Shown in pieces: positions 4,842 through 34,148 of a stretch of 64,000 bases of DNA. The notes under the pieces were generated by a model. That model did no database searches and was not told the DNA's origin. It saw only the letters and a list, made by a program, of their open reading frames with translations. The stretch is from Candidatus Staskawiczbacteria bacterium. GTDB lineage: Bacteria; Patescibacteriota; Minisyncoccia; Minisyncoccales; Staskawiczbacteraceae. The stretch is taken from assembly GCA_041661545.1 (NCBI GenBank), contig JBAZUH010000001.1:544148-608147 (forward strand), in the 5' to 3' direction. The position numbers and the translations under genes are program-made. How positions within the stretch are numbered: position 1 is the first letter of the stretch; each line of letters opens with the position of its first letter.

Positions 4842-4886
4842 AAGTTTACGTAGCGTAGCGATATAAGTTTGTATAGCGTATTATCG

Positions 4887-4957
4887 TGGACCCAGCGAGA
4901 GTCGAACTCGCGTTTCAGCAATGCGAATGCCGCGTCTTACCACTGGACCATGGGCCC
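4887..4957 (-). tRNA. tRNA-Ala (anticodon CGC), no encoded CCA
   Basis: The reverse complement GGGCCCATGGTCCAGTGGTAAGACGCGGCATTCGCATTGCTGAAACGCGAGTTCGACTCTCGCTGGGTCCA folds as a cloverleaf. It has the G3:U70 Ala identity pair and anticodon loop TTCGCAT. Confidence 0.9.
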
Positions 4958-4963
4958 GTTCTT

Positions 4964-5034
4964 TCGGGAGTGAAGGAATCGAACCTTCGTCCTACGGTTC
5001 CGAACCGTAGATTCTACCATTAAACCAACCCCCG
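4964..5034 (-). tRNA. tRNA-Pro (anticodon CGG), no encoded CCA
   Basis: The reverse complement CGGGGGTTGGTTTAATGGTAGAATCTACGGTTCGGAACCGTAGGACGAAGGTTCGATTCCTTCACTCCCGA has the C1:G72 pair typical of bacterial tRNA-Pro and anticodon loop TTCGGAA. Confidence 0.9.
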
Positions 5035-5055
5035 TTTTCTTTTACAAAGTAAATA

Positions 5056-6504
5056 TTATTTTACCCAATATTTTTGTTTTACCGATTCGTCTTCTTTGTT
5101 TTGAACTTCAAATTTATCTTCCTTCGATTTTTCTGCTAATTCTTTTAACTCTTTATCAGATAAGTTTATCAGTTTACTGGCCTCTTTTTCTAAAAATACT
5201 TTTGTATTTTTTTTAGGGTCATCTAAAACATAACTCAAAAGAATATCTAAAATTTGTCCAATTTTTGGCCCAGGTTTTACTTCCAAGGTAGACATCAAAT
5301 CATTTCCATTTATTTTTAACATTTTAACAGAAATAGGGTCTTTTGAAACCTTTTCAACCAAATATTTTAAATGTCTTAATTTATATGGTTCAGCTTTGGG
5401 CACGCCACTTCCAATTCTATCGGCCTGTCTTACTTGCAACAGTTCTTCCATATTTTCAGCACCAACATTTTTTACAAGCCTTCTAACCGAAGCCTCCCCC
5501 ACTTCGTCCACATTATAATAGAAGAGGTGATATCTTACTAACTTTGTAATTTTTTCAATTTCTTTTTTAGAAAATTTTAAACGATTTAAAATTTGAAAAC
5601 ACATTTTAGCTCCAATAATTTCGTGGTTATAAAACGTTGCACTTTCTCCTTGGCCAGCTTTTGACCTGGGCTTGCCAACATCATGAAGTAAAGAGGCTAT
5701 TCTTACATACATATTAAGTTTTTTCTTAGCAGTAAACTCTAAAGCTTTTATTGCATGCATATAGCAGTCATATATATGATGCTTGTTTTGAGCCACTCCA
5801 TAATTTTCTAAAAGCTCTGGCATAATATATTTTAACAAACCCAACTCTCGCAATAACTCAATACCGCCAGCTGCGTTGTCAGCCATAATTATTTTTATAA
5901 ATTCATCTCTAATTCTTTCTTGCGAAATAGCTTCTAACCAAATACTATTTTTTTTAATAGCCTCGGCGGTTTTTTCTTCAATTTTGAAATTAAGGGTTGT
6001 GGCAAATCTTACAGCTCTCAACATTCTTAAAGCATCTTCATTAAATCTTTCTTCTGGATTACCAACGGTTTTAATTATTTTATTTTTTAAATCCTTTTGA
6101 CCATCAAATAAATCTACAATTTTTTTATTTAGGTCCATTGCAAGAGCATTTATAGTAAAATCACGACGACTTAAATCATCTTCTAATTTGTCTGCATATT
6201 TTACTTGGTCAGGATGCCTTTTATCAGAATATTCTGCATCAAGCCTATAAGTTGTAATTTCAATTTCAGCTAACCCAGATTTTTTAGAACCAGTGCGCGC
6301 TGTTACTGTTAAAAAATTATTTTCATAAAAACTGTCGGGGAATACTTTTTGGATTTCTTCTGGCTTGGCATTAGTAGTAATATCCCAGTCTTTTGCTTCA
6401 ATTCCAAGCAAAAAGTCGCGCACGCATCCGCCCACAATATATGCCTCAAATCCAGTTTTTTCCAACTTTTCAATTATATTTTTAACCTCTTTTGGAATTA
6501 TCAT
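5056..6504 (-). CDS. cca: CCA-adding tRNA nucleotidyltransferase with HD domain
   Basis: 482 aa with GGCVRDFLLG..DWDITT head motif and HD motif LLHDVGKP. Adjacent to two tRNA genes that lack an encoded CCA. Confidence 0.85.
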   Translation of the reverse strand: MIIPKEVKNIIEKLEKTGFEAYIVGGCVRDFLLGIEAKDWDITTNAKPEEIQKVFPDSFYENNFLTVTARTGSKKSGLAEIEITTYRLDAEYSDKRHPDQVKYADKLEDDLSRRDFTINALAMDLNKKIVDLFDGQKDLKNKIIKTVGNPEERFNEDALRMLRAVRFATTLNFKIEEKTAEAIKKNSIWLEAISQERIRDEFIKIIMADNAAGGIELLRELGLLKYIMPELLENYGVAQNKHHIYDCYMHAIKALEFTAKKKLNMYVRIASLLHDVGKPRSKAGQGESATFYNHEIIGAKMCFQILNRLKFSKKEIEKITKLVRYHLFYYNVDEVGEASVRRLVKNVGAENMEELLQVRQADRIGSGVPKAEPYKLRHLKYLVEKVSKDPISVKMLKINGNDLMSTLEVKPGPKIGQILDILLSYVLDDPKKNTKVFLEKEASKLINLSDKELKELAEKSKEDKFEVQNKEDESVKQKYWVK

Positions 6505-8485: not shown

Positions 8486-8514
8486 TTGTTTTTTAAGGCT
8501 TTTTAGGTTAAAAT
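8486..8514 (+). promoter_or_regulatory. Weak candidate promoter for the tRNA-Arg / pilin / tRNA-Lys unit
   Basis: TTGTTT, 17 nt, TAAAAT, about 18 nt upstream of the tRNA-Arg 5' end. Confidence 0.35.
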
Positions 8515-8531
8515 AACAATAAGTTAATTTT

Positions 8532-8607
8532 GCCCTCGTGGTGAAATCGGATATCACACTTGGCTTCGAACCAAGAATTCCGGGTTCGAGTCCTGGCGAG
8601 GGCACCA
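8532..8607 (+). tRNA. tRNA-Arg (anticodon TCG), CCA encoded
   Basis: GCCCTCG/CGAGGGC acceptor stem, anticodon stem CTTGG/CCAAG with loop CTTCGAA, T-arm CCGGGTTCGAGTCCTGG, 3' ACCA. Confidence 0.9.
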
Positions 8608-8615
8608 CAACAAAC

Positions 8616-8987
8616 ATGAATAAAAAAATACTTTTGTCGGTTATTATATTATCATTAGCCTTGACTCCATTATTAGCCATGGCAGTGGACGAGGGGCTAG
8701 TAAAATGTGGAAATGACGTTAATAATCCATGCGACTTAGATGATTTTATGACAATACTAGATGATATTTACACATTTATAGTTTACACAATAGCCGCTCC
8801 TCTAGCTGTTATTGCTATTATAATTGGTGGCGTATTAATGATGACTTCTGCAGGCAACCCCAATATGATGAGCCTAGGTAAAAAAGTTTTTTGGTCTGCT
8901 ATTATAGGACTAGTTTTAGCTTTTGGGGCAAAAGCCATTATTAATTTTGTTCTTGAAGTTGTCGGGTATAATAAGGAACCAATATAG
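8616..8987 (+). CDS. Free-standing T4SS-type (VirB2/TrbC-like) pilin-module protein
   Basis: MNKKILLSVIILSLALTPLLAMA signal peptide, then two TM helices separated by a short Gly/Lys loop (..IIIGGVLMMTSAGNPNMMSLGKKVFWSAIIGLVLAF..). The start was moved from 8538 because that extension overlaps tRNA-Arg. Confidence 0.6.
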   Translation: MNKKILLSVIILSLALTPLLAMAVDEGLVKCGNDVNNPCDLDDFMTILDDIYTFIVYTIAAPLAVIAIIIGGVLMMTSAGNPNMMSLGKKVFWSAIIGLVLAFGAKAIINFVLEVVGYNKEPI

Positions 8988-9008
8988 TAACCAAAATTAT
9001 AATCATAT

Positions 9009-9084
9009 GCCCCCGTAGCTCAATTGGTAGAGCAGTTCCCTCTTAAGGAATTGGTTCCGAGTTCGAGTCTCGGCAGGGGCACCA
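9009..9084 (+). tRNA. tRNA-Lys (anticodon CTT), CCA encoded
   Basis: GCCCCCGTAGCTCAATTGGTAGAGCAGTTCCCTCTTAAGGAATTGGTTCCGAGTTCGAGTCTCGGCAGGGGCACCA with anticodon loop CTCTTAA. One acceptor-stem mismatch. Confidence 0.88.
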
Positions 9085-9091: not shown

Positions 9092-9120
9092 TTTACAAAA
9101 CCATAAAAATAGAGTATACT
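9092..9120 (+). promoter_or_regulatory. Putative promoter of rpsO
   Basis: TTTACA, 17 nt, TATACT. Confidence 0.5.
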
Positions 9121-9142
9121 AAATTATAAAAATAAACTAATT

Positions 9143-9161
9143 GAAGTGCCGGAAGCACTTC
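9143..9161 (+). promoter_or_regulatory. Leader hairpin in the rpsO 5' UTR
   Basis: GAAGTGC-CGGAA-GCACTTC, a 7-bp GC-containing stem in an otherwise AT-rich leader, 17 nt before the ATG. Confidence 0.4.
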
Positions 9162-9177
9162 CTATTTATAAAAGAAA

Positions 9178-9447
9178 ATGGCATTAAATACAAAGGAAAA
9201 GTCAAAAATTATAAAAGACGTATCAATTGATGAAAAAGATACAGGTTCTGCAGATGTACAAATTGCATTGCTATCAAAACAAATAGATAAGCTAGTTTTG
9301 CATTTAAAAAAACATGCTCAAGATGTTCACTCTAAAAAAGGCCTAATAACAATGGTCATTAAAAGAAAGAAAATGTTAGCTTTTCTTAAAAAAACATCTG
9401 AAAAAAGATATACTGCTATCATCAAAAAAATAGGACTAAAAAAATAG
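9178..9447 (+). CDS. rpsO: 30S ribosomal protein S15
   Basis: 89 aa with GSADVQIALLSKQIDKLVLHLKKH..D.HSKKGL. Confidence 0.92.
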   Translation: MALNTKEKSKIIKDVSIDEKDTGSADVQIALLSKQIDKLVLHLKKHAQDVHSKKGLITMVIKRKKMLAFLKKTSEKRYTAIIKKIGLKK

Positions 9448-9984
9448 ATGCAACCAAAACCAAAAGAGCAGAGAGTAGAGGTGCTAATAGATGTACAAAA
9501 CTTGTACTATTCAGCAAAAAATCTCTATCACTCAAAAGTTAATTTTCAGGAAGTTTTAAAACAAGCAGTGGCAGGCAGAAAGTTTATTAGAGCTTTTGGG
9601 TACGTTGTGCGCACAAAAACTGGCGAAGAAGCGCCATTTTTTGATGCATTAAGTAAAATTGGAATTGAAACAAGAGTTAAAGATTTACAAGAATTTTATG
9701 GTGGAGCCAAAAAAGCCGACTGGGATGTAGGCATTGTAATTGATGCAATTAGAACAGCTCCGGGCGTTGATGTAATTGTGCTAGTTTCTGGCGATGGTGA
9801 TTTTATTGCATTGGTAGAATATTTAAAAAATATGGGCAAGAGAGTAGAGGTGGTTGCCTTTGGCCGTTCAACCTCTGGAAAATTAAAAGAAACAGCAGAT
9901 GAATTTATAGATTTAGATGAAGGATTAAGCAAATTCTTATTATCTAGCGATAACAGAACAAAAGAAAAAATTATTAAAAAATAA
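9448..9984 (+). CDS. NYN/LabA-like (DUF88) domain protein
   Basis: 178 aa with VLIDVQNLYYSAK, DWDVGIVIDAI and VLVSGDGDFIALVEYLK. Starts at the nucleotide after the rpsO stop. Confidence 0.8.
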   Translation: MQPKPKEQRVEVLIDVQNLYYSAKNLYHSKVNFQEVLKQAVAGRKFIRAFGYVVRTKTGEEAPFFDALSKIGIETRVKDLQEFYGGAKKADWDVGIVIDAIRTAPGVDVIVLVSGDGDFIALVEYLKNMGKRVEVVAFGRSTSGKLKETADEFIDLDEGLSKFLLSSDNRTKEKIIKK

Positions 9985-10081: not shown

Positions 10082-12241
10082 ATGGCTACGAAAGATACGT
10101 TTGAGATAAAGGTTGGCGAAAAGCCAGTCATAATTGAAACTACAAATTGGACCGAGCAAGCATCGGGCTCTTGTTTAGTTTCTTGCGGAGAAACAAAAGT
10201 TTTAGTAACAGCAGTTCTATCCCCTTTCACAAGAGAGGGCATAGATTATTTTCCACTAACAGTTGAATATGAAGAAAGATTTTATGCTGCAGGAAAAATA
10301 TTTGGTTCAAGATTTGTAAGAAGAGAAGGCCGAGCAACAGATGAAGCAGTTTTAACCGCCCGCATGATTGACCGAGCAATAAGGCCTTTGTTTCCAAAAG
10401 ATTTTATGAAAGAAGTTCAAGTAATTGTTACTTGTTTATCTTGGGATGGCGAAAATGACCCAGATATTTTAGGAATGATTGGCGCTTCATTTGCATTAGC
10501 TACTTCACAAATTCCGTGGAATGGGCCCTTAGGAGCTATTAGAATTACTAAGAATAATGGCGAGTGGGTTTTTAATTCTAATTACGAACAAAGAAAAGAT
10601 TGCGACATGGATTTAACTTTATCAGCCATAGAAAAAGATGGCGACATATTAGTTAACATGATTGAAATGGGAGCAAAAGAAATTTTAGAAAAAGATGTTT
10701 TAGAAGCCTATGAAGTTGCTAAAAAAGAATTGAAAAAAATTATTGATGCACAAATTTTAGCTGTCAAAAAAATTGGCAAAGAAAAAAATGTTTTTGAGCC
10801 AGCAGTTGAATTAGATATTGCTAATGAAATAAAAGAATGGCTGGGAGACAAATTAGAAAAAGCAATAACTAATGCTCCAAAAGGAGAAAAAAATCTTGGT
10901 GCTACTGAAATTTTAAAACAAGAATTAGTAAAATATTTATCAGAAAAATATCCTGAGGGAAGCCTGCCTGCCGGTAGGCAGGGAAAAGCCAGCCAAGTTT
11001 TGTCTTTTTTTGAAAAAGAAATTGAACGAATAATAATTAAAAATATCATTGATAAAAATTACAGACCAGATGGTAGAAAAGATGTTGATATAAGACCATT
11101 ATCTTGCGAAGTAGCAGTTTTACCAAGAGCTCATGGAAGCGCAGTATTTTTTAGAGGATTAACAAGAGTGCTTTCAATTTTAACTTTAGGAGGGCCCGGT
11201 GACTCACAAATTTTAGAAGGAATGGAAATTATTGGTAAAAAAAGATTTATGCATCACTACAATTTTCCTCCATTTTCATCTGGAGAAACAGCTCCAATGA
11301 GAGGGCCAAAAAGAAGAGAAATTGGGCACGGTGCATTAGTTGAAAAAGCTTTATTGCCTGTTTTACCAGAAATAGAAAAATTTCCTTATACAATAAGAAT
11401 TGTTTCTGAGGTGGTTTCTTCAAATGGGTCTACTTCTCAGGCTTCAACTTGTGCAGCTTGCATTGCTTTAATGGACGCAGGAGTACCAATAAAAGAACCT
11501 GTGGCAGGAATTTCTGTTGGATTGGCCAAAGATGAACAAACAGGAAAATATAAAGTGTTAACCGATATTCAGGGCCCAGAAGATCATTATGGAGATATGG
11601 ACTTTAAAGTTGCAGGAACTCGCAACGGAATTACTGCAATTCAAATGGATATTAAAATAGACGGCATTGATAAAAAAATCATGGAAGAAGCTTTAAACAG
11701 AGCAAAAGATGCAAGATTTAAAATACTCGATATAATAAAAAAAGAAATATCCGAACCAAGAAAATCTTTATCGCCTTATGCTCCTAAAATTGCTACCCTA
11801 ACAATAAATCCTTCAAAAATTGGGGAAGTTGTTGGACCAAAGGGCTCGGTTATAAATAAAATAATTGAAGCCTGCGGAGGAGTAGCAATTGACATAGAAG
11901 ATTCTGGATTTGTTTCTGTAACAGGACAAAACCAAGAAGATGTTGATAAAGCTGTTGCCTGGATTAAAGGAATTGTTAGAGAAGTTCAAGTTGGAGAAAC
12001 CTTTCAAGGAAAGGTTGTAAAAATTATGGACTTTGGTGCTTTTGTAGAATTGTTTCCTGGCACCGATGGCATGGTTCATATTTCAAAATTTGTAAAAGAA
12101 AGAATAAATAGCGTTACAGAGGTGGTGCATGAGGGGCAAATAATTCCAGTAAAAGTAATGTCTGTTGATGAGCTAGGCAGAATAAATTTGTCAGCAATTG
12201 ACGCAGGGTTTCATCCAACTCCCAAGAACGAAAAGCACTAA
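10082..12241 (+). CDS. pnp: Polynucleotide phosphorylase
   Basis: 719 aa with two RNase PH domains, KH (GPKGSVINKI) and S1 (GKVVKIMDFGAFVEL). Confidence 0.95.
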   Translation: MATKDTFEIKVGEKPVIIETTNWTEQASGSCLVSCGETKVLVTAVLSPFTREGIDYFPLTVEYEERFYAAGKIFGSRFVRREGRATDEAVLTARMIDRAIRPLFPKDFMKEVQVIVTCLSWDGENDPDILGMIGASFALATSQIPWNGPLGAIRITKNNGEWVFNSNYEQRKDCDMDLTLSAIEKDGDILVNMIEMGAKEILEKDVLEAYEVAKKELKKIIDAQILAVKKIGKEKNVFEPAVELDIANEIKEWLGDKLEKAITNAPKGEKNLGATEILKQELVKYLSEKYPEGSLPAGRQGKASQVLSFFEKEIERIIIKNIIDKNYRPDGRKDVDIRPLSCEVAVLPRAHGSAVFFRGLTRVLSILTLGGPGDSQILEGMEIIGKKRFMHHYNFPPFSSGETAPMRGPKRREIGHGALVEKALLPVLPEIEKFPYTIRIVSEVVSSNGSTSQASTCAACIALMDAGVPIKEPVAGISVGLAKDEQTGKYKVLTDIQGPEDHYGDMDFKVAGTRNGITAIQMDIKIDGIDKKIMEEALNRAKDARFKILDIIKKEISEPRKSLSPYAPKIATLTINPSKIGEVVGPKGSVINKIIEACGGVAIDIEDSGFVSVTGQNQEDVDKAVAWIKGIVREVQVGETFQGKVVKIMDFGAFVELFPGTDGMVHISKFVKERINSVTEVVHEGQIIPVKVMSVDELGRINLSAIDAGFHPTPKNEKH
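10963..10983. repeat. GC-rich hairpin insert in pnp, in frame
   Basis: CCTGCCT-GCCGGT-AGGCAGG, a 7-bp stem encoding ..SLPAGRQGK.. in the variable linker region. Confidence 0.6.
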
Positions 12242-15957: not shown

Positions 15958-16093
15958 CTTGTTTCTAGCTTAGCATTTTCAAACAAGCTAGTCAAATAGT
16001 TATGCACAATTATTTGTCTGCTATTTTAAGAAAAAATATGTAAAAAAAGAGCGCCATATTTGTGAGATAGACGCATAACAGCAAGAAAGGATT

Positions 16094-17518
16094 TCACGGA
16101 ATGTCCGTAGATTTGGCTATCGCTTGGGCGGGGTTTTGAGCCTTCCATGCGCCCGAATCAGTAGAGCTGTAGACATATCCGCCCATGACCGTCGCAGTCA
16201 TACTGCGAAAGTCTACGGATGCGGACACGTCAGACCAATTCTGCTTGTCGGCAACCGGCTCCCAATCCACCCCGAAATTGCCAGAGGTGTAAAGCGAGCC
16301 TCCAGACTCTGCAGCCAAGAATCGACGACCATCGCCCGAACACTTAATGGCCACCCATTTCCGAACATTGTCGGTTAACCGTGGTTGCCACGTCTGCATA
16401 AAGTCAGTGGAGATGTAGATATATCCACCATTTACAGTGGCGCCCCAAAACTGGGCGTTATAATTGGTTGTTAGGTCCGTCCAATCGCGGGACTCGCCAA
16501 CGGGCTTCCATGTCTGGCCCCCGTTGTAGGACGCATAAAGCCAACTATTGGAGGCTGCTACCCCCCGAAATTGACCACCAAAATCCATCTCGCCAGCCAC
16601 CCAATTCGGGCCAGCAAACCCGGTCGTCTCCCAGCTATCCCCCCAATCATACGTCTGCCAGATGTATCCACCTGGATCAACGGCCATCAGAAGTTGGCCA
16701 TCATCAGAAGTTGCTACGGACCTCCACCGGATTTTCAGGTCGCCCTCATAGGGCAAGTCGTATGCTTTCCAGGTCTGACCATAGTCAGCGGACCCATATA
16801 ACTCTCCATCAAGGGTCCCTATAATCTGGTTTTGGCCATAATAGGACACGGCGACGCAGGAAGGTTTATCTATATCTACGGTCCGCCAAGTGCTCCCGCC
16901 ATCGGCGGAGACATAAACTGGCGCGTTGCCAGCGATAAGCGTCCTATATTTTCCGTCACCAGACATGGAAGCACCGTTCCATGCAAGACTGGGACTGCCC
17001 ACGGCAGGTGAGGGGGGATTGGGTGTGTTACCACCATCGCCACCACCACCATTGCCACCGCCAGGACCTCTGCTCCCATCTCCTCCACCAATGGGGCCGA
17101 AAGAATAAAATGGAACAGATTCCTTGGTCTTATGCCTGATTATGGGGCTCCAATTAGCATAAGCCGTTGGTGTCGTCGCAGGATTAGATGTTGTTGTGCG
17201 CGAACCAAAGTTGGTTCGTGCAATGCTCGCCTGCGGGGCAACAACCTCTGCTCGAGGAATATTCGTGCCAGCTCTCTTTAAACTGACTTGGCCTTCGTTG
17301 TGTCCACTGGATTTCAAATTCCAGGGCTTGTATTTGTTCGCGGTCAAGCCTTGACCCGACCTAAACAATTTCAACGACGGCCTTTCGGGCTCGCTGAGCC
17401 ACACTACAAAAAAGATCGGCACTAGCAGTGCCAGTAGAGTAGCGCCCAGTTTCTTGAGCCCTATCTTCTGCAAAACCGCCGTCGCGGTAGAAATCTTCTC
17501 AAGGCTTTTTGTGTTCAT
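16094..17518 (-). CDS. Membrane-anchored Asp-box (BNR) repeat beta-propeller protein, on a GC-rich island
   Basis: Seven SxDxGxTW-like boxes (SADGGSTW, SADYGQTW, TYDWGDSW, SYNGGQTW, STDFMQTW, TSGNFGVDW, STDSGAW). Gly/Pro linker and TM anchor. ATG at 17518 is preferred over the GTG at 17581 because AAGGAG sits 10 nt upstream. Confidence 0.7.
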   Translation of the reverse strand: MNTKSLEKISTATAVLQKIGLKKLGATLLALLVPIFFVVWLSEPERPSLKLFRSGQGLTANKYKPWNLKSSGHNEGQVSLKRAGTNIPRAEVVAPQASIARTNFGSRTTTSNPATTPTAYANWSPIIRHKTKESVPFYSFGPIGGGDGSRGPGGGNGGGGDGGNTPNPPSPAVGSPSLAWNGASMSGDGKYRTLIAGNAPVYVSADGGSTWRTVDIDKPSCVAVSYYGQNQIIGTLDGELYGSADYGQTWKAYDLPYEGDLKIRWRSVATSDDGQLLMAVDPGGYIWQTYDWGDSWETTGFAGPNWVAGEMDFGGQFRGVAASNSWLYASYNGGQTWKPVGESRDWTDLTTNYNAQFWGATVNGGYIYISTDFMQTWQPRLTDNVRKWVAIKCSGDGRRFLAAESGGSLYTSGNFGVDWEPVADKQNWSDVSASVDFRSMTATVMGGYVYSSTDSGAWKAQNPAQAIAKSTDIP

Positions 17519-17604
17519 GGCTGACTTTCTCCTTTCCAAAAAGTTTTCAATGCTAGAAGTGGTTGACAAAATGTCTTCCACGTTGCTTCTAGCGTGCTAC
17601 TTCA

Positions 17605-17633
17605 ATAATGCTATTTAAAGTGCATCTTGTCAA
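17605..17633 (-). promoter_or_regulatory. Putative promoter of the BNR gene
   Basis: The minus strand reads TTGACA, 17 nt, CATTAT. Confidence 0.45.
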
Positions 17634-17674
17634 GGGTTTTTCACTTGCTTCTATATATATGATATAATACACAA

Positions 17675-18535
17675 ATGAATTTAACTTCTCCAACCATAAT
17701 AAAAGAACTTCTTTCAAAATATAAAACCCGGCCTTCAAAAGGATTGGGGCAAAATTTTTTAATAGATAAAAATGTTTTAAGAAAAATTATTGAAGCTTCA
17801 AATATAAAACCAACAGATATTATTTTAGAAGTGGGGCCGGGCATTGGCATACTAACTCAAGAATTAGCCAAACATGCAAAAAAAGTTATAGCAATTGAAA
17901 AAGATTTTACAATGTGCGAAGTTTTAAAAGAAACTTTGTCTGATCTTAAAAACATTCAAATTGAAAATTGTGATATTTTAAAATTTATTGAAAATTGGAA
18001 ATTGAAAATTGAAAATTATAAGGTAGTTGCCAACATTCCATATTATTTAACTTCGCCATTAATTAGAAAATTTTTAGAAAACCCACCAGGTGGGGAACAG
18101 CCACAAGAAATAATTTTAATGATACAAAAAGAAGTTGCTCAAAGAATTTGTGCAAGCCCGCCAAAAATGAGTTTGCTAGCAGTGTCAGTGCAATTTTATG
18201 CAGAACCTAAAATTATAAGTTATGTTACAAAAAATTGTTTTTGGCCTGCACCCAAAATTGATTCTGCAATAATAAATATCAAGCCCAAAAATAATTTTAA
18301 TAAAGAAATAGATGTTGATGCATTTTTCAAAGTTGTTAAAGCAGGTTTTTCGCAACCAAGAAAACAACTTGTGAATAACTTGACTACCTTAAAATATTTA
18401 GATGGTGTAAAATTAACAAAAGAAGAAATTTCTAATTGGCTTTCTAAAAATAATTTAAAATCTAATCAACGGGCCGAAAGCCTAACAATCAACGATTGGG
18501 AAAATCTAACAAACAGTTTTTTAACTTTAAAATAG
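17675..18535 (+). CDS. rsmA: 16S rRNA (adenine1518/1519-N6)-dimethyltransferase
   Basis: 286 aa with GQNFLIDKNVLRKI, EVGPGIGILT and VVANIPYYLTSP. Confidence 0.92.
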   Translation: MNLTSPTIIKELLSKYKTRPSKGLGQNFLIDKNVLRKIIEASNIKPTDIILEVGPGIGILTQELAKHAKKVIAIEKDFTMCEVLKETLSDLKNIQIENCDILKFIENWKLKIENYKVVANIPYYLTSPLIRKFLENPPGGEQPQEIILMIQKEVAQRICASPPKMSLLAVSVQFYAEPKIISYVTKNCFWPAPKIDSAIINIKPKNNFNKEIDVDAFFKVVKAGFSQPRKQLVNNLTTLKYLDGVKLTKEEISNWLSKNNLKSNQRAESLTINDWENLTNSFLTLK

Positions 18536-18539: not shown

Positions 18540-20525
18540 ATGTTTCAACAATTCTCATTTCTAAAAAATAAATATTTATTTTTCACTCTTTTCTGTTTTA
18601 TTATATTACTAGGAGCATTAATGCCCGTACACGTCTTAGCCGAATCAAATGACAGTGCTGGCTGGGGTAATACAGGAGATAGATCAAAAATAATAAATCT
18701 ATTTACTTCTGCATCTCCTGATTCTTTCTCTCCCGAAGGTGGTTGGGATGCAACAACGTGGCCCAAATATTTAATTGGATATTTATTATTTTCAATCGTA
18801 TGGCTAGCCTTCAAAATAGCTGCTTTAGCACAGTTGTTATTATCTTATGTATTGGGTGTAATTGTAAGCTTATCAATAACCAAAGATCCTAATTGGCTTC
18901 CAATATGGGGCAGCCTTAGAGATTTAGGAAATATGGTTATTGTATTGGGATTCGTAGTAGTAGGCATTGCTACATCTCTAAGATTTAAAGACTATGAAGC
19001 TAAAAAGATCTTGTTGCCTTTGATACTAGTTGCTATTCTAATCAACTTCTCCGGATTAGTTTGTGGATTAATTATAGATGCGTCTAATTTAGTAACTACT
19101 GGATTAATAGAGGGAAGTGAAGCTTCCATGATGCCATATAACGTCTTACAACAAATGATTCTCGTTAGCTCGTGCGTGCATACCACAGGACACGATGCGG
19201 GGCCCGATGCATATGTTGAAGTATCAACGTCAGTAAACACCCCCTCGTGTATTTCAACCGAAAATTATGATAAAGATCTTAAAATATTTATAGCAATATG
19301 TTGTTTATGGATGATTTTGTACTTAGCCATAGGTCTTACATTTTTATATATGGCAGTTTTACTTTTGGCAAGATATGCCATTTTAATAATGTTATTTATA
19401 TTATCTCCTTTAGCTTTCACTTTCTGGGTTTTTCCAATTACTAAAAAATTGTGGCAAGAGTGGTGGAATCATTTTGTAAAATGGTGTTTTGTTGGAGTCT
19501 ATGCATCGTTTACTCTCTACATAGCTACTACCATTATAACAAAAGTGCCCATCGTGGGAGGCACTGCAGACAACCTGAATAGTGACTTATGGCAACTAAC
19601 TCTTGTATATTCTATTGCAATAGTATTTTTGATTGTTGGATTTAAAATGACCGTCAGCAAGGTTGGAGGAGCCGCTGTAACAGCTATTTTGGGACTAGCA
19701 ACTGGTGGCGCGGCTTTGGCCGGTAGAGCAACCCTTGGTGCAACCAAACTTGCTGGAAGAGGAATCGGAGCCGGAGCCAGAGCATTAGATAATAAAGCTA
19801 CTGGCGGAAAGGTTACTTCGGCGATAGGCAACATGGGTAGGAAGGTTGGTAGCAGTACCGGAAGATTTCTGGATGCTATGGCAGGAACTCCTGGTGCTAG
19901 AGCTGGAGGTGTAGCGAAAGAATTCTCAGCAGGCTCTGATAGAATTGGAGATATGGATTTAGCCAGCCAAGTTAAATTAGCTTCAGGCAAAGGAATGGGT
20001 GGCATGGCAAGAACAAAAGAAAGAGCTGAGGCAGTACAAGCCTTGGCAAAAAGCGGAAATCTTTGGAGAATTAGCGATGATATAAATGAACAATCAAGAG
20101 CCGTTAATTTTGCAGATAAATATATGCAAAGCAAAGGGATAGATGCCACTAAATTTAGAGGGGACGTTAGCAAGAATGCTCCTGTGCTAGAAGCATACAA
20201 TCGTCCTATTGTAGAAAAAATTCAACAACAGCATCCAAATTGGAGCCCTGCTCCCGACGCAAGCTTGGGTGGATTAACTCGAGCTCAACATGAAGCGGTT
20301 GTACGTGCAGTAGCGAGAATGCCAGAAGACGGTTTAAATGCCAGCACGGCAAAATCAATGCATCATTCTGCTATAACAGCAGCGGGAGCTAGAATGAACG
20401 ATAGAAAAAAACAAACATGGCAAAAAGCTTCTTATAATGATATGCGCCAAGAGGCGCTGGCTATGAATGCTGGGCCAGAACAAACCGCCTTGGCAGAAAG
20501 AGCAAGAGCAATGTTTGATTTATAA
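18540..20525 (+). CDS. Polytopic membrane protein, TrbL/VirB6-like by architecture
   Basis: 661 aa. Signal peptide (..VHVLAES), at least 6 TM helices, Gly/Ala-rich segment, hydrophilic C-terminal third. No motif-level proof. Confidence 0.5.
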   Translation: MFQQFSFLKNKYLFFTLFCFIILLGALMPVHVLAESNDSAGWGNTGDRSKIINLFTSASPDSFSPEGGWDATTWPKYLIGYLLFSIVWLAFKIAALAQLLLSYVLGVIVSLSITKDPNWLPIWGSLRDLGNMVIVLGFVVVGIATSLRFKDYEAKKILLPLILVAILINFSGLVCGLIIDASNLVTTGLIEGSEASMMPYNVLQQMILVSSCVHTTGHDAGPDAYVEVSTSVNTPSCISTENYDKDLKIFIAICCLWMILYLAIGLTFLYMAVLLLARYAILIMLFILSPLAFTFWVFPITKKLWQEWWNHFVKWCFVGVYASFTLYIATTIITKVPIVGGTADNLNSDLWQLTLVYSIAIVFLIVGFKMTVSKVGGAAVTAILGLATGGAALAGRATLGATKLAGRGIGAGARALDNKATGGKVTSAIGNMGRKVGSSTGRFLDAMAGTPGARAGGVAKEFSAGSDRIGDMDLASQVKLASGKGMGGMARTKERAEAVQALAKSGNLWRISDDINEQSRAVNFADKYMQSKGIDATKFRGDVSKNAPVLEAYNRPIVEKIQQQHPNWSPAPDASLGGLTRAQHEAVVRAVARMPEDGLNASTAKSMHHSAITAAGARMNDRKKQTWQKASYNDMRQEALAMNAGPEQTALAERARAMFDL

Positions 20526-20543
20526 ATATTAATTAATAATATA

Positions 20544-21167
20544 ATGGTAAATAATCAACAAAAAATTATTATTTTTGAGAATCAAGGCTCTAAAAGCATA
20601 TGGGCGATTATTTCAGAAGTTTTAAAAGATAATGGGATGGAAGAAACAGCCATTGATTTTTTCAAAAAAGTGGACGAGAAGAAAATACCATTTTCAAGCA
20701 TAATATATAAATTATCTAGAAAACTTGCTCAAGAAGAAATTACAGAAGAAAATTTTGTTACATCAATCAAAGACCAATTAAAAATTGAGCAACAAGTTGC
20801 TGAAAAAATATTAAAAGATGTAAAAGAAAAAATTTTACCGCTGGCTAGAACGCTTGAAAAAGATGAACTAGTAAAAGATGAAACAATTAGCACTGTGCCA
20901 CAGAGCCTAAAAACAATAAATAAAAATTTCTCACCGGCAACAGAAAAAAATAACATAAATATTTCTGGCTCAGAAATTTTGGCTAATGAGCCAATAGATT
21001 CTTTGCCAAAAAATGAAACTCAAAATATTGCAAACACAATTACTCCTGCGACCATTGAAACACCAACAAAAAGAATTAGAAAACCTTTACCTAAAAAACC
21101 TTTTGTACCAGAAACTCAACCAACACAACCTAGCAAGCCAGATTCTTATAGAGAACCTATAGAGTAA
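20544..21167 (+). CDS. Hypothetical protein with Pro/Thr-rich C-terminus
   Basis: 207 aa, follows the VirB6-like gene on the same strand. Confidence 0.45.
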   Translation: MVNNQQKIIIFENQGSKSIWAIISEVLKDNGMEETAIDFFKKVDEKKIPFSSIIYKLSRKLAQEEITEENFVTSIKDQLKIEQQVAEKILKDVKEKILPLARTLEKDELVKDETISTVPQSLKTINKNFSPATEKNNINISGSEILANEPIDSLPKNETQNIANTITPATIETPTKRIRKPLPKKPFVPETQPTQPSKPDSYREPIE

Positions 21168-21180
21168 AAGCAGTAAACAA

Positions 21181-21209
21181 CCCCACACCAATTTCGGGTG
21201 GGGTTTTTT
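21181..21209 (+). terminator. Terminator after 20544-21167
   Basis: CCCCACACC-AATTTC-GGGTGGGG followed by TTTTTT. Confidence 0.7.
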
Positions 21210-21213
21210 ATTT

Positions 21214-21270
21214 AAAAAAAGGGGCGAGCTTCGTGGTGTCGTGTAAAAAACGACACCATCGAAGCCCGCC
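21214..21270 (-). terminator. Long-stem terminator of the GC-rich SPFH-like gene
   Basis: GGCGAGCTTCGTGGTGTCGT / ACGACACCATCGAAGCCCGCC form an imperfect stem of about 20 bp. The T-run is on the minus strand. Confidence 0.6.
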
Positions 21271-21289
21271 TTTGGGTTATGTTCTGAGG

Positions 21290-22468
21290 TTACAGGCCGT
21301 CCAAATCGTCCGGCCCCAACTCTATCGCTGGCGGAGGCGAACCTCCACCAGGCTGATTGCGTCTGTCACCACGACGATTCCCCCCGTCTCCCCGAGCCAA
21401 TGGCTGAAGAGCATTGCCGAGTTCGCGTGCCAACGTAACACCGGCTGCGAAGTTGGCCTCAATCGGTTGGCCACCGCTGGTGACATCAAACTTGGTGAAT
21501 CCGCGACCAGCGAGCGCCTGCGATCGTAGTTGCTCAAGCGCCTGTTTATGTTGAGCATATTCACCACTTCTTTTCAGCTTGGCAACGAGTTTCTTCATCG
21601 CCACCGAATCCGACGAGTCAACTCCCGCGAGCCTTGCTTCTTCGGTAATCCATTCTTGCATGGCAAGCTGGACCGGGCCAAAAACCCGCGCCTTTTCGCC
21701 TTCAGCCAACAATTGCTGTTTGCTTTTGGCCTCCAAGGCTTCCTGATATCCGGGCTGGTATCCCACATCTTCAACGATGACAGAATTTTCCAGAATCCGA
21801 AGACCCCAGTCATTTTCCATCGTCGTGAAAACAGGAAGCGATCCCTGATTAACCAGGTCTTGCCAAAGCTGGGCGCCATTACCCCTGGCGGCTTGAGCAC
21901 GCTCTTGTGAACCGCCACGAACCCATGCTCGCAACGTTGAATCCATCCGCCGTATAACCTGAGCGCTAACGTCGCGGGGTGCCACAAACAGCCATTTGTA
22001 CAGGTTGACGATTCTCATGACGGAAACGAATTTCACGTCAAGTGGAACGCTCTCAGGAGCTGCCGTTTCTGCTTTAGAGATCATGGGTTCAGGAGCGACG
22101 TTTCCGACGCGGACATGAATGCCCGCACCAAACATGTCGGCACTTCCATTCTGCTGAGCGTATCGAACGGCCGAGACAAACGGCCATAGATAAATCACCC
22201 AGCCCCCAAAACGGCACATAAACCATGACCCCTGGCCATAGCCGTCGGGGTAATCTCCCTCGACAACGTTGCCGTTTTCATCGAAGCCATGCCCCCTGAA
22301 ATTCATCCCTAGGTAGCAGAAGCTACCGAAGCTGAGAAAGGCAATGGCTGTGCCTTCTCGGATGATTGCCACCCTAATAATACGCAACGCCCAGAGGAGG
22401 AAGATTGTGAAAATCATCCACCAAAGGTGATCGCTCAGCCAATCGAACACTGAATATATCGCTTGCAT
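21290..22468 (-). CDS. Membrane-anchored SPFH/band-7-like protein, on a GC-rich island
   Basis: Start taken at MQAIYSVFDW (ATG at 22468). N-terminal TM. The segment IIREGTAIAF...VKFVSVMRIVNLYKWLFVAP.DV resembles an SPFH fold pattern. Coiled-coil and Gly/Arg-rich tail. Confidence 0.45.
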   Translation of the reverse strand: MQAIYSVFDWLSDHLWWMIFTIFLLWALRIIRVAIIREGTAIAFLSFGSFCYLGMNFRGHGFDENGNVVEGDYPDGYGQGSWFMCRFGGWVIYLWPFVSAVRYAQQNGSADMFGAGIHVRVGNVAPEPMISKAETAAPESVPLDVKFVSVMRIVNLYKWLFVAPRDVSAQVIRRMDSTLRAWVRGGSQERAQAARGNGAQLWQDLVNQGSLPVFTTMENDWGLRILENSVIVEDVGYQPGYQEALEAKSKQQLLAEGEKARVFGPVQLAMQEWITEEARLAGVDSSDSVAMKKLVAKLKRSGEYAQHKQALEQLRSQALAGRGFTKFDVTSGGQPIEANFAAGVTLARELGNALQPLARGDGGNRRGDRRNQPGGGSPPPAIELGPDDLDGL

Positions 22469-22609
22469 TTTGGTTGTTGGTTGTTGGTTGTGGTTGGTTG
22501 GTTTTGAACAGTCACTTAACGGTTGGCGCGAGAACACCTCGCTCCACACAGGAATTACCCTGCGTTCATAATGAAAACCGTGTTTGACAATGTTCTTTCA
22601 GATACATTT

Positions 22610-22818: not shown

Positions 22819-23226
22819 ATGGAACAATATCCTATACCACAATTTATTGAAGCAGAAAGTAAAATTGCTTTTTTCATATCTTTTAAACAATTTTTCTACT
22901 TAGTAGGGGCGGGGCTTATTTGTTTTTTTCTATATTACATTTTGCCTCGTGCAATTTTTTATGTAGTCGCGTCTATAATTTTTATTGCTGCGGCAATATT
23001 AGCCTTTGCCACCATAAATGGAACTCCTATAATAAACATCATTTTAAATTCAATTGGTTTTTCTATGGGTGGCAAAAACTATACATGGAAGAAAAAAGAA
23101 TCTCCCTATCCATTTAAACCAATTTCAAGAACTAAAATTAAAAAAATAGATGTGGGGCCAGTGTTACAAGCACAAACAAGCCAGCTAAAAAAAACTAAAA
23201 CATTAATAGACTTAAAGACTAAATAA
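22819..23226 (+). CDS. PrgI/VirB3-like small membrane protein
   Basis: 135 aa. YPIPQFIEAESKIAFFISFKQFFYL followed by two TM helices, positioned directly upstream of VirB4. Confidence 0.6.
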   Translation: MEQYPIPQFIEAESKIAFFISFKQFFYLVGAGLICFFLYYILPRAIFYVVASIIFIAAAILAFATINGTPIINIILNSIGFSMGGKNYTWKKKESPYPFKPISRTKIKKIDVGPVLQAQTSQLKKTKTLIDLKTK

Positions 23227-23248
23227 TTTCTAATTAAAAATTAATATT

Positions 23249-23908
23249 ATGGCAGAATCTGCAACACAAGCATTTTTAGAAGTGCAAGATATAAGAGAAG
23301 GAGTTTTGCTTTTAAAAAATAATTCTATTAGAGGAATTTTAATGACTTCTTCTATAAACTTTGCTTTAAAGTCTGAAGAAGAACAAACTGCTACAATATA
23401 TGCCTTTCAAAGTTTTTTAAATTCATTAGACTTTTTTTGCCAAATTGTTATTCAATCAAGAAATATAAACATTACTCCATATTTAGATAGTTTAAAAGAT
23501 TTAGAAAATAAACAAACAAACGAATTATTAAAAAAACAAACTATCTCATACAGAGAGTTTATAAAAGAAATGGTGGTGGGGGATGTAGTTATGACAAAAA
23601 GTTTTTATATAGTTATACCATATAATCTTATGGAAATTTTTGGGTTAAAGGGTGCCCAAAAAAAATTCAACTTTGGAGATGCCTCGGGCGGAGCAAACAA
23701 CAAACCAATGGGTGATGATGATTTTGAAAGATGCAAAACACAACTTTGGCAAAGAATGGAATATGTATCTATGGGGCTAAGAAGATGTGGCCTAGAAGCT
23801 GTTCCATTAACTACGCCAGAACTCATAGAATTATTTTGGTCTATACACCATCCCGATCAAGCAGAGGTGGGGTATTATCCAGAAATATTACCCGAATTAT
23901 TAAAATAA
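23249..23908 (+). CDS. Probable detached N-terminal domain of VirB4 (ICE/Firmicutes type)
   Basis: 219 aa. FLEVQDIREGVLLLKNNSIRGILMTSSINFALKSEEEQTATIYAFQSFLNSLDFFCQIVIQS resembles the N-terminus of Orf16-type VirB4 ATPases (from memory). Confidence 0.4.
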   Translation: MAESATQAFLEVQDIREGVLLLKNNSIRGILMTSSINFALKSEEEQTATIYAFQSFLNSLDFFCQIVIQSRNINITPYLDSLKDLENKQTNELLKKQTISYREFIKEMVVGDVVMTKSFYIVIPYNLMEIFGLKGAQKKFNFGDASGGANNKPMGDDDFERCKTQLWQRMEYVSMGLRRCGLEAVPLTTPELIELFWSIHHPDQAEVGYYPEILPELLK

Positions 23909-23926
23909 TAATTTAAAATTATTGCC

Positions 23927-25732
23927 ATGGATTTTTTTAATAATATTTTTGGAAAAAAAGAGGAAGACTTAACAGAACAAATTTTTAAAGAAGAAGCTTT
24001 TGATGTAAAAGATATTATAGCTCCTCCATATATTGGGGTTCTTCAAGACCATATAAAACTAGGCGAAAGACTTGCTAAATCTTTTTTCGTTTTTTCTTAT
24101 CCTAGATATTTAAATACTGGTTGGTTTTCTCCTGTTATAGATTTAAATACTCCAATGGATATTTCATTTTTTATACATCCTGTTAGTAGTGAATTAATTT
24201 TAAAAAAATTAAGAAAAAAAGTTACAGAGGTTTCTTCAGAACTTTTAGAAAGAGAAGAAAAAGGTTTAATTAGAGACCCTTCTCTAGAAACAGCCTATAA
24301 AGATATTGAAGCGCTACGCGACAATTTAATGACTGCTCAAGAAAAAATGTTTAGGCTTGGTCTTTATATAACAATTTACGAAACCTCTGAAAAAGAATTA
24401 CGAGAAACCGAGCTTACATTAAGATCAATTTTTGAATCTAGATTAATTTATATAAAACCTGCTTTGTTCAAGCAAAAAGAAGGTTTTATTTCTTGCAATC
24501 CTTATGGAATGGATTTATTAGATGTTCACACCCCCATGGACACAGCTCCCTTATCAACTTGTTTTCCATTTATTTGTTTTGACTTAAGCTCTAACGAAGG
24601 AATTTTATATGGCATAAACAGACATAATAATTCTTTAGTTTTATTTGATAGATTTAGTTTAGAAAATGCCAACATGGTAGTGTTTGCAAAATCTGGTTCT
24701 GGAAAATCTTTTGCTATTAAATTAGAAATTTTAAGATATTTAATGCAAGGCATAGACTGCATAATTGTTGACCCAGAAAATGAATATGAGTTTTTAGCCG
24801 ATGCAGTTGGGGGAGCATTTTTAAAAATTTCTTTAACATCTGCAAACCATGTAAATCCTTTTGACTTGCCCGTGCCAGGGCCAGATGACAACCCACAAGA
24901 TATTTTAAGATCTAACGTTATAAACTTGGTGGGACTTTTAAGAATTATGTTAGGAGGCTTAACCCCAGAAGAAGATAGTATTTTAGACGAAGCTCTAACA
25001 GAAACTTATGCAATAAGAGATATAACTGCCGAATCAGATCCAACAACATGGGCTAACAACACTCCATTAATGTCAGACTTTCAAGAAGTTTTACAAAGTA
25101 TGACTGGAACAGAGTCTTTAGTAAAACGTATTGGAAAATTTACCAAAGGAACTTTTTCTGATTTCTTTAACCAACAATCTAATATTACTATGGATAAAAG
25201 TTTGGTTGTTTTTGGAATTAGAGATATGGAAGAGTCGCTAAGACCTATAGCCTTATATATTATTATGAGATATATTTGGAATACTGTAAGACAAAAATTA
25301 AAAAAAAGAATTTTAGTTATTGATGAGGCATGGTGGTTAATGCAGTCAGCTGATGGAGCATCTTTTCTTTTTGGGATAGTAAAAAGAGGAAGAAAATATT
25401 GGCTAGGCGTAACTACAATTACGCAAGATGTGGCCGACTTTATGAAATCAGATTATGGCAAAGCAATTGTTACCAACTCGTCTTTGCAACTTTTAATGAA
25501 GCAATCAACAGCTGACATTGATTCTGTTCAAAAAGTTTTTCAATTAACAGAACAAGAAAAATATTTATTACTAGAAGCCGCGGTGGGCGAGGGGTTGTTT
25601 TTTGCAGGCAAAAAACATGTATTTTTATCTGTAGTTGCAAGTCAAACAGAAAGTCAAATAATTACTACCAACCCTCAAGAAGTTTTAGCAAACAGACAAG
25701 CCAAAAAAGATTTAGAGTCAGCACAAAATTAA
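23927..25732 (+). CDS. VirB4/TrbE/CagE-family T4SS ATPase (C-terminal two thirds)
   Basis: 601 aa with Walker A FAKSGSGKSF, Walker B RILVIDEAWWLM and TTITQD. Confidence 0.85.
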   Translation: MDFFNNIFGKKEEDLTEQIFKEEAFDVKDIIAPPYIGVLQDHIKLGERLAKSFFVFSYPRYLNTGWFSPVIDLNTPMDISFFIHPVSSELILKKLRKKVTEVSSELLEREEKGLIRDPSLETAYKDIEALRDNLMTAQEKMFRLGLYITIYETSEKELRETELTLRSIFESRLIYIKPALFKQKEGFISCNPYGMDLLDVHTPMDTAPLSTCFPFICFDLSSNEGILYGINRHNNSLVLFDRFSLENANMVVFAKSGSGKSFAIKLEILRYLMQGIDCIIVDPENEYEFLADAVGGAFLKISLTSANHVNPFDLPVPGPDDNPQDILRSNVINLVGLLRIMLGGLTPEEDSILDEALTETYAIRDITAESDPTTWANNTPLMSDFQEVLQSMTGTESLVKRIGKFTKGTFSDFFNQQSNITMDKSLVVFGIRDMEESLRPIALYIIMRYIWNTVRQKLKKRILVIDEAWWLMQSADGASFLFGIVKRGRKYWLGVTTITQDVADFMKSDYGKAIVTNSSLQLLMKQSTADIDSVQKVFQLTEQEKYLLLEAAVGEGLFFAGKKHVFLSVVASQTESQIITTNPQEVLANRQAKKDLESAQN

Positions 25733-25759
25733 AATTTAAAAAATCCTATAATTATACAA

Positions 25760-29725: not shown

Positions 29726-29736
29726 TATTTTATAAT

Positions 29737-30759: not shown

Positions 30760-30786
30760 TTTTTGTGATATTTCTAATATATATAT

Positions 30787-32085: not shown

Positions 32086-32100
32086 TTTATCCTTATAAGC

Positions 32101-32128
32101 AAAAAGCCCCGCTATAGCGGGGCTTTTT
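32101..32128. terminator. Bidirectional terminator (T4SS-like operon / jag)
   Basis: AAAAAGCCCCGC-TATA-GCGGGGCTTTTT. Confidence 0.85.
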
Positions 32129-32136
32129 AAATTAAT

Positions 32137-32643: not shown

Positions 32644-32644
32644 A

Positions 32645-33388: not shown

Positions 33389-33389
33389 T

Positions 33390-33752: not shown

Positions 33753-33759
33753 TTTTAGA

Positions 33760-34059: not shown

Positions 34060-34148
34060 GTTTAATAACATCTCTATTGTATTTAAGTCTATTTGACAAA
34101 GACTTAATAAAAAGGAAAAATATAACTATTAGAAATAATTCTTCAATT

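Follow-up and report, generated by a model that had tools for sequence, protein, structure and literature searches.

How can a gene be expressed when tRNA genes close it in on both sides? The question is raised by a stretch of 64,000 nt from Candidatus Staskawiczbacteria bacterium, an uncultivated, ultra-small member of the Candidate Phyla Radiation (CPR/Patescibacteria), in which a predicted pilin gene stands between a tRNA-Arg and a tRNA-Lys gene. The whole stretch is called the window here and coordinates are window positions; L001, L002 and so on are labels of loci in relatives, and P0004 and P0006 are labels of database proteins. Our analysis points to a conserved tRNA-Arg/pilin/tRNA-Lys unit whose pilin mRNA would be released by tRNA processing, and we give this overall explanation a probability of roughly 0.7.

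Anatomy of the unit

The unit and its promoter-like elements comprise the following features:

8486-8514, + strand: promoter-like element TTGTTT-N17-TAAAAT, putative promoter of the whole unit (sequence, conservation)
8532-8607, + strand: tRNA-Arg, anticodon TCG (ARAGORN; Rfam RF00005, 64.7 bits)
8608-8615, + strand: 8-nt spacer CAACAAAC from the tRNA-Arg CCA to the pilin ATG (sequence)
8616-8987, + strand: VirB2/TrbC-type (T4SS_pilin) pilin gene, 123 aa (Pfam, orthologs)
8959-8988, + strand: promoter-like TTGTCG-N18-TATAGT overlapping the last pilin codons (consensus scan, 9/12 matches)
8988-9008, + strand: 21-nt spacer from the pilin stop to tRNA-Lys (sequence; terminator absent)
9009-9084, + strand: tRNA-Lys, anticodon CTT, CCA encoded (ARAGORN; Rfam 67.6 bits)
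9092-9120, + strand: rpsO promoter TTTACA-N17-TATACT (consensus scan, 10/12 matches; conserved in nearly all loci)

The original prediction, which had been made from the letters of the window, described a tRNA-Arg gene, 8 nt, a pilin open reading frame (ORF), 21 nt and a tRNA-Lys gene, and this order is confirmed by the sequence, ARAGORN and Rfam. The tRNA-Arg gene consists of a body at 8532-8604, identical over its full length (100%) in L002/L003, and an encoded CCA at 8605-8607. The pilin ORF opens with ATG at 8616 and closes with TAG at 8985-8987. The mRNA is thereby bounded by tRNAs on both sides, at 8 and 21 nt in the window and at 8-13 and 6-22 nt in six relatives.

The ortholog N-termini, M-x-K-K followed by a signal peptide, all align with ATG 8616. 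A longer ORF of 149 aa from GTG 8538 was rejected, as it merely reads through tRNA-Arg, and the 191-aa database protein P0006 is the same read-through artefact and spans two tRNA genes. Gene callers evidently extend this pilin ORF through the upstream tRNAs, which is a lesson for annotation. The idea that the unit is an integration cassette was likewise rejected for the window: the only flanking repeat is T-arm/acceptor sequence common to both tRNAs, and no att-like repeats were found.

The pilin is a conserved gene

The pilin ORF matched two Pfam families above their gathering thresholds, PF04956 (TrbC/VirB2; 39.9 bits, threshold 27.9, E 5.1e-10) and PF18895 (T4SS_pilin; 38.6 bits, threshold 26.6, E 1.1e-9), and its product shows 100% identity with a protein recorded as 'MAG: pilin [Candidatus Staskawiczbacteria bacterium]'. 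Inspection of the sequence and of the ortholog alignment showed the form typical of the pilin family, namely a small precursor that opens with a cleavable signal peptide (MNKK followed by hydrophobic residues, with the cleavage site read between LAMA and VDE) and two hydrophobic helices at residues ~52-76 and ~90-113. The alignment also contains two conserved Cys residues and an invariant SAGNP..GKK loop. A profile search against PDB returned VirB2 matches that were non-significant only (E 0.24-0.49), and a search of NCBIfam gave only a sub-threshold match, to a pilin-like family of Mycoplasma integrative and conjugative elements. A role in pilus assembly or secretion is putative, from family membership.

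The ratio of non-synonymous (dN) to synonymous (dS) substitution was 0.08-0.30 in comparisons with 14 orthologs, in which dS was saturated (1.1-3.6). The pilin ORF is a real gene under purifying selection, and the conservation on which the original prediction had staked itself was found. As both layout and sequence are conserved (synteny, comparison of loci, dN/dS), the tRNA flanks are a trait of the ortholog group.

Conservation of the layout among relatives

Loci were drawn from a single-protein genome scan (4 loci) and a metagenome scan (24 loci), the latter comprising 12 orthologs at 46-63% identity (L010-L021) and 12 distant paralogs at ≤39%. Wherever the contig reached, tRNA-Arg(TCG) and/or tRNA-Lys(CTT) lay beside the pilin gene in 12/12 of these orthologs, and all ortholog loci recovered from metagenomes and genomes together (46-79% amino acid identity) were tRNA-flanked where the contig was long enough. 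The same flanks were found in 0/12 loci of the distant paralogs, one of which (L022) has only an unrelated tRNA-Ser far downstream. Relatives thus keep the arrangement, and as the loci compare, it is not due to chance.

The surrounding gene order cca/GNAT/CofD/HAD/tRNA-Arg/pilin/tRNA-Lys/rpsO/NYN/pnp is shared with L001, L002, L003 and L006, whose pilins are 79% (L001), 54% (L002 and L003) and 55-59% (L006) identical to that of the window, and L004 has a shortened form of it. Spacing between tRNA-Arg and the pilin ATG was tabulated for each locus (L020 duplicates L019):

Short spacers: window 8, L002 8, L006 9, L021 11, L011 12, L004 13, L010 13 nt
Longer spacers: L018 24, L019/L020 24, L012 26, L016 31, L013 42, L017 56, L001 81 nt
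tRNA-Arg inverted: L007, L014

Seven loci therefore have a spacer of 8-13 nt and another seven one of 24-81 nt, where the 9 nt of L006 are counted after the retained 3' fragment of a disrupted tRNA-Arg. The distance from the pilin stop to tRNA-Lys is 6-27 nt in most orthologs. The 8-nt spacing originally described is correct for the window but not universal, as orthologs span 8-81 nt. When the pilins are joined in a neighbour-joining tree, most loci with spacers of 8-13 nt share one half of it, which makes extreme tightness a subgroup trait. We do not claim the very short spacer as ancestral; it is the tRNA-pilin-tRNA order that is general among the orthologs.

A putative single promoter upstream of tRNA-Arg

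The element at 8486-8514 falls in the 47-nt gap between the stop of the HAD hydrolase gene (8484) and tRNA-Arg. Its 29-nt architecture, TTG(C/T)nT...TTTTAGGT(T)AAAAT, precedes tRNA-Arg in 9/14 loci under a strict pattern whose 17-nt spacer is invariant, the other loci having close variants of it, and 8486-8514 is the sole match to the pattern within the 64-kb window. We infer that this element is the promoter that drives tRNA-Arg, pilin and tRNA-Lys. A consensus scan detected no promoter-like site on the + strand between 7871 and 8679, and it omits 8486-8514 because the -35 of this element matches at only 3/6 positions.

The original prediction held that there is no room for a promoter between tRNA-Arg and the pilin gene, and this was borne out: none was seen at this place in the window, and a sigma-70-like site between the tRNA-Arg 5' end and the pilin ATG was absent in 13/14 loci in which the tRNA is co-oriented, the exception being a marginal site in L016. 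Both loci with an inverted tRNA-Arg, L007 and L014, carry a TGn-extended -10 promoter before the pilin gene; that of L014 (TGtTATTAT) ends 6 nt before the ATG, a placement that predicts a leaderless pilin mRNA. No other observation argues as strongly for dependence of the pilin on the tRNA-Arg promoter at loci where that tRNA is upstream and co-oriented.

No terminator was found inside the unit by the window scan. The rpsO promoter begins a few nt past tRNA-Lys and marks the downstream limit of the unit. The three genes thus stand on one strand with no conserved promoter or terminator between them and, by sequence evidence only, with a promoter upstream of the first (8486-8514), as is characteristic of a mixed tRNA-mRNA operon. 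Co-transcription of tRNA-Arg, pilin and tRNA-Lys is strongly supported because the upstream promoter is conserved, the rpsO promoter follows, no internal promoter is conserved and the inverted loci have their own, and a single transcript starting near 8486-8514, as originally proposed, is supported on the same grounds.

Translation start

Absence of a Shine-Dalgarno (SD) sequence from the 8-nt spacer had also been noted, which is true of the spacer but does not set this gene apart. An SD core (GGAG, GAGG or AGGA at -20..-4) was present in 4/54 window genes (7%) against 8% for random 17-mers, and the pilin is itself one of the four, its 'match' being the tRNA acceptor stem. As window genes generally lack an SD sequence, the argument carries no weight. 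Gene starts in the window have 60-72% A at positions -6..-2, a context that CAACAAAC fits, and structure prediction leaves the surroundings of the pilin AUG unpaired whether or not the tRNA is attached. A search of the literature on SD use in Patescibacteria and on leaderless translation in CPR bacteria found nothing directly relevant. The predicted leader of the pilin mRNA is ~5-11 nt depending on the cut site, which would be short, yet not leaderless.

Proposed processing of the transcript

Two genes in the window encode enzymes that bear on the processing of such a transcript:

33390-33752, - strand: rnpA, protein subunit of RNase P (Pfam Ribonuclease_P, 5e-20, 72 bits)
5056-6504, - strand: CCA-adding enzyme gene (cca), a conserved neighbour (Pfam PolyA_pol, PolyA_pol_RNAbd, tRNA_NucTran2_2, HD; synteny)

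The explanation that we favour is that the promoter at 8486-8514 transcribes tRNA-Arg, pilin and tRNA-Lys as one precursor with the promoterless pilin in its middle. From general tRNA biology, RNase P, with the rnpA product as the trans-acting enzyme, would cut the 5' ends of both tRNAs: at 8531/8532 it would remove a leader of ~10 nt from tRNA-Arg, and the cut at 9008/9009 would give the pilin mRNA a 3' tail of 21 nt. Cleavage after the tRNA-Arg discriminator by a tRNA 3' endonuclease would free the pilin mRNA with its leader of ~5-11 nt. This cut may be made by RNase Z in the relatives L002, L004, L006 and L010, whose tRNA genes lack CCA, and may fall near the encoded CCA in the present genome; RNase Z is the natural candidate in those four relatives, consistent with the neighbouring cca gene, whose product is needed for the CCA-less tRNA genes of the window and of relatives. 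Translation would then begin, without an SD sequence like that of the other genes here, at a start region that is rich in A and free of structure. In a very compact genome, the cell would probably gain by having a constitutive tRNA promoter express a major structural subunit whose gene lies ~14 kb from the secretion machinery. Co-transcription would be the conserved feature of the whole ortholog group and the very short leader one confined to part of it. A candidate protective 3' stem-loop inside the ORF, at 8919-8935, was rejected, as by eye it follows from the AFGAKA codons and it is absent in L002.

A more ambitious form of this explanation, which we put forward tentatively and think rather unlikely, is that tRNA maturation gates translation of the major pilin, with the precursor blocked and processing exposing a short SD-less leader. 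Initiation on the precursor may be hindered because the folded tRNA-Arg, whose end is 9-12 nt ahead of the AUG, would reach the margin of the 30S footprint and impede 30S binding. Processing of the tRNA 3' end would expose the leader, an early ribosome would shield the 5'-monophosphate end from RNase J, and the RNase P cut at tRNA-Lys would set the lifetime of the pilin mRNA. If true, a structural gene of a CPR lineage would be under the control of a conserved, two-sided tRNA punctuation on a bacterial chromosome.

Weighing of the alternatives

Several observations weigh against release of the pilin mRNA by tRNA processing. Transcript ends, cleavage and expression of the unit are all inferred. 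Tight spacing is dispensable, as the spacer of L001, whose pilin is 79% identical, measures 81 nt and holds a palindromic insert, and L007 and L014 do without the upstream tRNA. The promoter-like site at 8959-8988 could give tRNA-Lys a separate start in this genome; the site resembles the rpsO -10 region (repeat family D3) and has no conserved equivalent in the orthologs. No RNase Z gene was seen within the 64-kb window, and an encoded CCA disfavours or blocks RNase Z in Bacillus-type systems. As tRNA-Arg encodes its CCA, the 5' end of the pilin mRNA is not predictable to the nucleotide. Processing may also shorten the life of the pilin mRNA rather than mature it, since in Escherichia coli the RNase P cut between secG and leuU is followed by PNPase-dependent decay of the secG mRNA within 30 s (PMC2241853).

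This last point leads to the main rival, in which the genes are co-transcribed without regulatory meaning, as a by-product of genome compaction and tRNA insertion hotspots that is kept by inertia. Pilin would be translated mainly from unprocessed or partly processed precursors, the tRNAs would be at most protective ends, and cleavage would start decay. The rapid decay of secG mRNA once RNase P has cut speaks for such an outcome, as does the retention in CPR genomes of RNase J, RNase III and PNPase, of which RNase J and PNPase attack 5'-monophosphate and unprotected 3' ends (PMC12641178). A passive origin is also in keeping with the drift of the spacer from 8 to 81 nt, the inversion of tRNA-Arg in two lineages, repeated insertions into tRNA genes at the syntenic locus and the other tRNA cluster of the window, which is likewise wedged between same-strand genes. 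Inertia fits less well with a layout that persists across orthologs with saturated synonymous sites (dS 1.1-3.6) and is absent from the distant paralogs, and initiation on unprocessed RNA may be hindered, to judge from established ribosome footprints. We consider this rival unlikely, though it deserves to be taken seriously, and whether processing matures or destabilizes the mRNA is the question that separates it from the explanation we favour.

That an unrecognized promoter within tRNA-Arg or the spacer serves the pilin, giving for instance a leaderless transcript with its start at the ATG, and that the tRNAs are irrelevant to its expression, is very improbable. CPR sigma factors are poorly known, and the extended -10 of L014 makes near-leaderless expression plausible in principle; yet the 84 nt before the ATG consist of a G+C-rich tRNA body plus CAACAAAC with no -10-like hexamer, promoter-like sites are likewise lacking in 13/14 co-oriented loci, and recognizable promoters occur exactly in the two loci where the tRNA is inverted. 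The ORF might also be non-functional, either a chance ORF between tRNAs or the decaying remnant of an integrated element, given that it is small, lies apart from the type IV secretion system (T4SS) cluster and occupies a locus with many integration scars in relatives. Against this, 15 orthologs share its length, signal peptide, Cys pair and hydrophobic helices and no att-like direct repeats flank it, and the matches to two pilin families above threshold together with dN/dS values of 0.08-0.30 effectively refute the notion.

Comparison with known systems

Mixed tRNA-mRNA transcripts that are cut by RNase P are already known in bacteria: in the E. coli secG-leuU co-transcript, whose spacer is 14 nt, RNase P cuts mRNA and tRNA apart (Mohanty and Kushner 2008, PMC2241853). 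The present unit resembles it in having a protein gene with a tRNA a very short way downstream on one transcript (a spacer of 14 nt in E. coli, of 21 nt in the window and of 6-27 nt in relatives), where a single RNase P cut at the tRNA 5' end would make the 3' end of the mRNA. The two differ in that E. coli has a tRNA on the downstream side only, that secG is expressed from a promoter and leader of its own, and that RNase P cleavage there brings on rapid PNPase-dependent decay, whereas the pilin gene, in a unit known from sequence alone, is also preceded by a tRNA, with 8 nt between it and the ATG.

Operons headed by tRNAs offer a second comparison. In E. coli, the head tRNAs of thrU-tyrU-glyT-thrT-tufB and metY-rimP-nusA-infB...rpsO-pnp are co-transcribed with protein genes and the mRNA 5' end is made by tRNA 3' processing; their spacers are long and contain an SD sequence. 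The likeness lies in the promoter of a head tRNA, and the rpsO-pnp neighbourhood recalls the metY region, while the spacer of 8-13 nt in half of the lineages and the lack of SD use are unlike the E. coli operons. A search of the literature on tufB co-transcription found nothing directly relevant.

The original prediction had invoked mitochondrial tRNA punctuation, a genome-wide mode in which tRNAs are excised by RNase P and RNase Z (Ojala et al. 1981; reviewed in PMC3790967) and abut mRNAs at 0 to a few nt. The analogy holds in so far as a tRNA flanks the mRNA at either end, and removal of these tRNAs by RNase P and RNase Z would set both mRNA ends and leave a very short leader. It fails as a genome-wide mode: the arrangement concerns one gene, with four tRNAs in 64 kb and ~50 other genes that are not tRNA-flanked, ordinary bacterial promoters bound the unit, and cleavage is presumed. 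Nor is the analogy needed, since secG-leuU already shows RNase P separating an mRNA from a tRNA in a bacterium.

A survey of T4SSs in Patescibacteria found pilin genes near virB4 or in arrays, with the VirB4 cluster beside dnaA in many genomes, and a term search of its main text for 'tRNA' returned no occurrence (PMC12102498). The window agrees with the surveyed pilins in the families PF04956 and PF18895 and in a VirB4, PrgI/VirB3 cluster next to dnaA; it is unlike them in that the pilin is single, ~14 kb from the cluster and inside a tRNA/rpsO/pnp housekeeping locus. A VirB2-like pilin family was reported to be essential in one cultivated relative (PMC12102498). A VirB2-like pilin that is wired to a housekeeping tRNA promoter and not to the secretion cluster suggests constitutive expression.

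The unit would be an uncommonly tight form of the mixed tRNA-mRNA operons familiar from E. coli. What sets it apart, as read from the loci, is the presence of tRNAs on both sides, the distance of 8-13 nt from tRNA to AUG in half of the lineages, the SD-less starts, a T4SS pilin as cargo away from its machinery and the conservation of this layout across a CPR lineage. To our knowledge, almost nothing is known of how CPR/Patescibacteria produce and process mRNA and start translation without an SD sequence. The locus is a compact, conserved and easily cloned test case of ~600 bp in which one can ask whether mRNA ends are made by tRNA enzymes and what the shortest accepted leader is.

Genomic surroundings

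Upstream of the unit lie cca on the minus strand and genes for a GNAT acetyltransferase, CofD and the HAD hydrolase that stops at 8484. The principal features downstream are:

9143-9161, + strand: rpsO leader hairpin, GCGCCGGAAGCGC type (window scan; alignment fold)
9178-9447, + strand: rpsO (ribosomal protein S15), the next gene downstream (ORF; Ribosomal_S15 at the syntenic position in relatives)
9448-9984, between rpsO and pnp: NYN-domain protein gene (PF01936, 5e-35)
10082-12241, downstream of the NYN gene: pnp (PNPase)
22819-32085, + strand: type IV secretion cluster, ~14 kb from the pilin gene (Pfam, profile searches)

The hairpin at 9143-9161 was considered as a terminator of the unit and set aside, as it lies downstream of the conserved rpsO promoter and is more likely part of the rpsO leader, although it may serve both purposes. 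Ten divergent loci keep both the promoter and the leader hairpin (GAAGTGCCGGAAGCACTTC, CGGAA loop); 4/7 of the pairs in the alignment fold show compensatory changes, and the leader (window 9092-9177) matched no Rfam family; the hairpin could be an S15 autoregulatory or attenuator element. The NYN gene, for a putative ribonuclease, also stands between rpsO and pnp in L001-L004, with two copies in L004, and on the contig of P0004. Its place in an RNA-metabolism locus beside the tRNA-pilin-tRNA unit makes its product a candidate RNA-processing enzyme.

The T4SS cluster shows that cognate secretion machinery is encoded in the same genome as the pilin. It contains a PrgI/VirB3-like gene (22819-23226), a VirB4-type ATPase gene (23927-25732) and genes for three large proteins with pilin-like domains (25760-32085). 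Profile searches matched 25760-29725, 29737-30759 and 30787-32085, and Pfam gave TraG P-loop/AAA_10 and T4SS_pilin in 29737-30759. The cluster includes a 1321-aa protein as well as proteins of 340 and 432 aa with N-terminal pilin-like domains, and lies directly beside the origin set jag-yidC-rnpA/dnaA-dnaN (22819-36853 in all).

The second tRNA cluster, on the minus strand at 4842-5058, runs from the cca stop through 21 nt, tRNA-Pro(CGG), 6 nt, tRNA-Ala(CGC) and 44 nt to the ATG of an ABC transporter gene, and neither tRNA encodes CCA. The gap between cca and tRNA-Pro is only 4 nt in L004. Such junctions suggest that tRNA-mRNA co-transcription may be common in these genomes. Two G+C-rich islands, 16001-18000 (0.47) and 20001-22000 (0.43) against ~0.32 elsewhere, overlap minus-strand ORFs at 16094-17581 (a weak Sortilin-Vps10 repeat match) and 21290-22549 (no Pfam match), and may be horizontally acquired.

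Palindromic elements and possible tRNA gene replacement in relatives

Disruption of tRNA genes together with palindromes, mostly seen outside the window, may be more novel than the tRNA-pilin-tRNA layout. The syntenic tRNA genes are split or nested in L004 (2949-3140), L001 (3459-3643), L006 (2312-2489) and L007 (2826-2912). An intact tRNA-Arg with a 17-bp inverted repeat (CTTGCCCCCACACCAAAGTTT/AAACTTTGGTGTGGGGG) lies inside the D-loop region of an older tRNA-Arg in L004, and a tRNA-Lys with an 18-bp inverted repeat of similar termini (CTTGCCC...GGGTGAA) lies inside the T-arm of an older tRNA-Lys in L001. The repeat of the L004 type recurs in L007 as a bare hairpin within a truncated tRNA-Lys, and in L006 a different tRNA-Arg and two hairpins lie between remnants of the old tRNA-Arg, 15 nt from its 5' end and 18 nt from its 3' end, which match the tRNA-Arg of the window at 100% identity. 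These loci look like the work of mobile palindromic cassettes that insert into a tRNA gene and carry with them a substitute for the tRNA they disrupt.

In L006 (2876-3248), an ORF of ~80 aa with a GIY-YIG domain of homing-endonuclease type stands between a truncated tRNA-Lys of the old type and a tRNA-Lys(CTT) of a new type that is 97-100% identical in L004, L007 and L016. This suggests an endonuclease-driven replacement of the tRNA-Lys gene in L006, an arrangement reminiscent of SegB in the tRNA cluster of phage T4.

A G+C-rich 20-nt palindrome, CCTGCCTGCCGGTAGGCAGG, of which none is expected by chance, lies in-frame inside the pnp ORF of the window (10963-10982), where it reads ..SLPAGRQGK... 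Exact copies are found inside cca (L004/L005), between NYN and pnp (L001) and, in L006, in the tRNA-Lys remnant and the rpsO leader hairpin. It has the look of a very small mobile palindrome that, like the Rickettsia palindromic elements, can be accommodated within coding sequence. The 81-nt spacer of L001 (2920-3000) holds a nested palindrome (CGTAATAAATTT...AAATTTATTACG, inner AATTTAAACG...CGTTTAAATT), which appears to be an insertion into an otherwise 8-13 nt junction.

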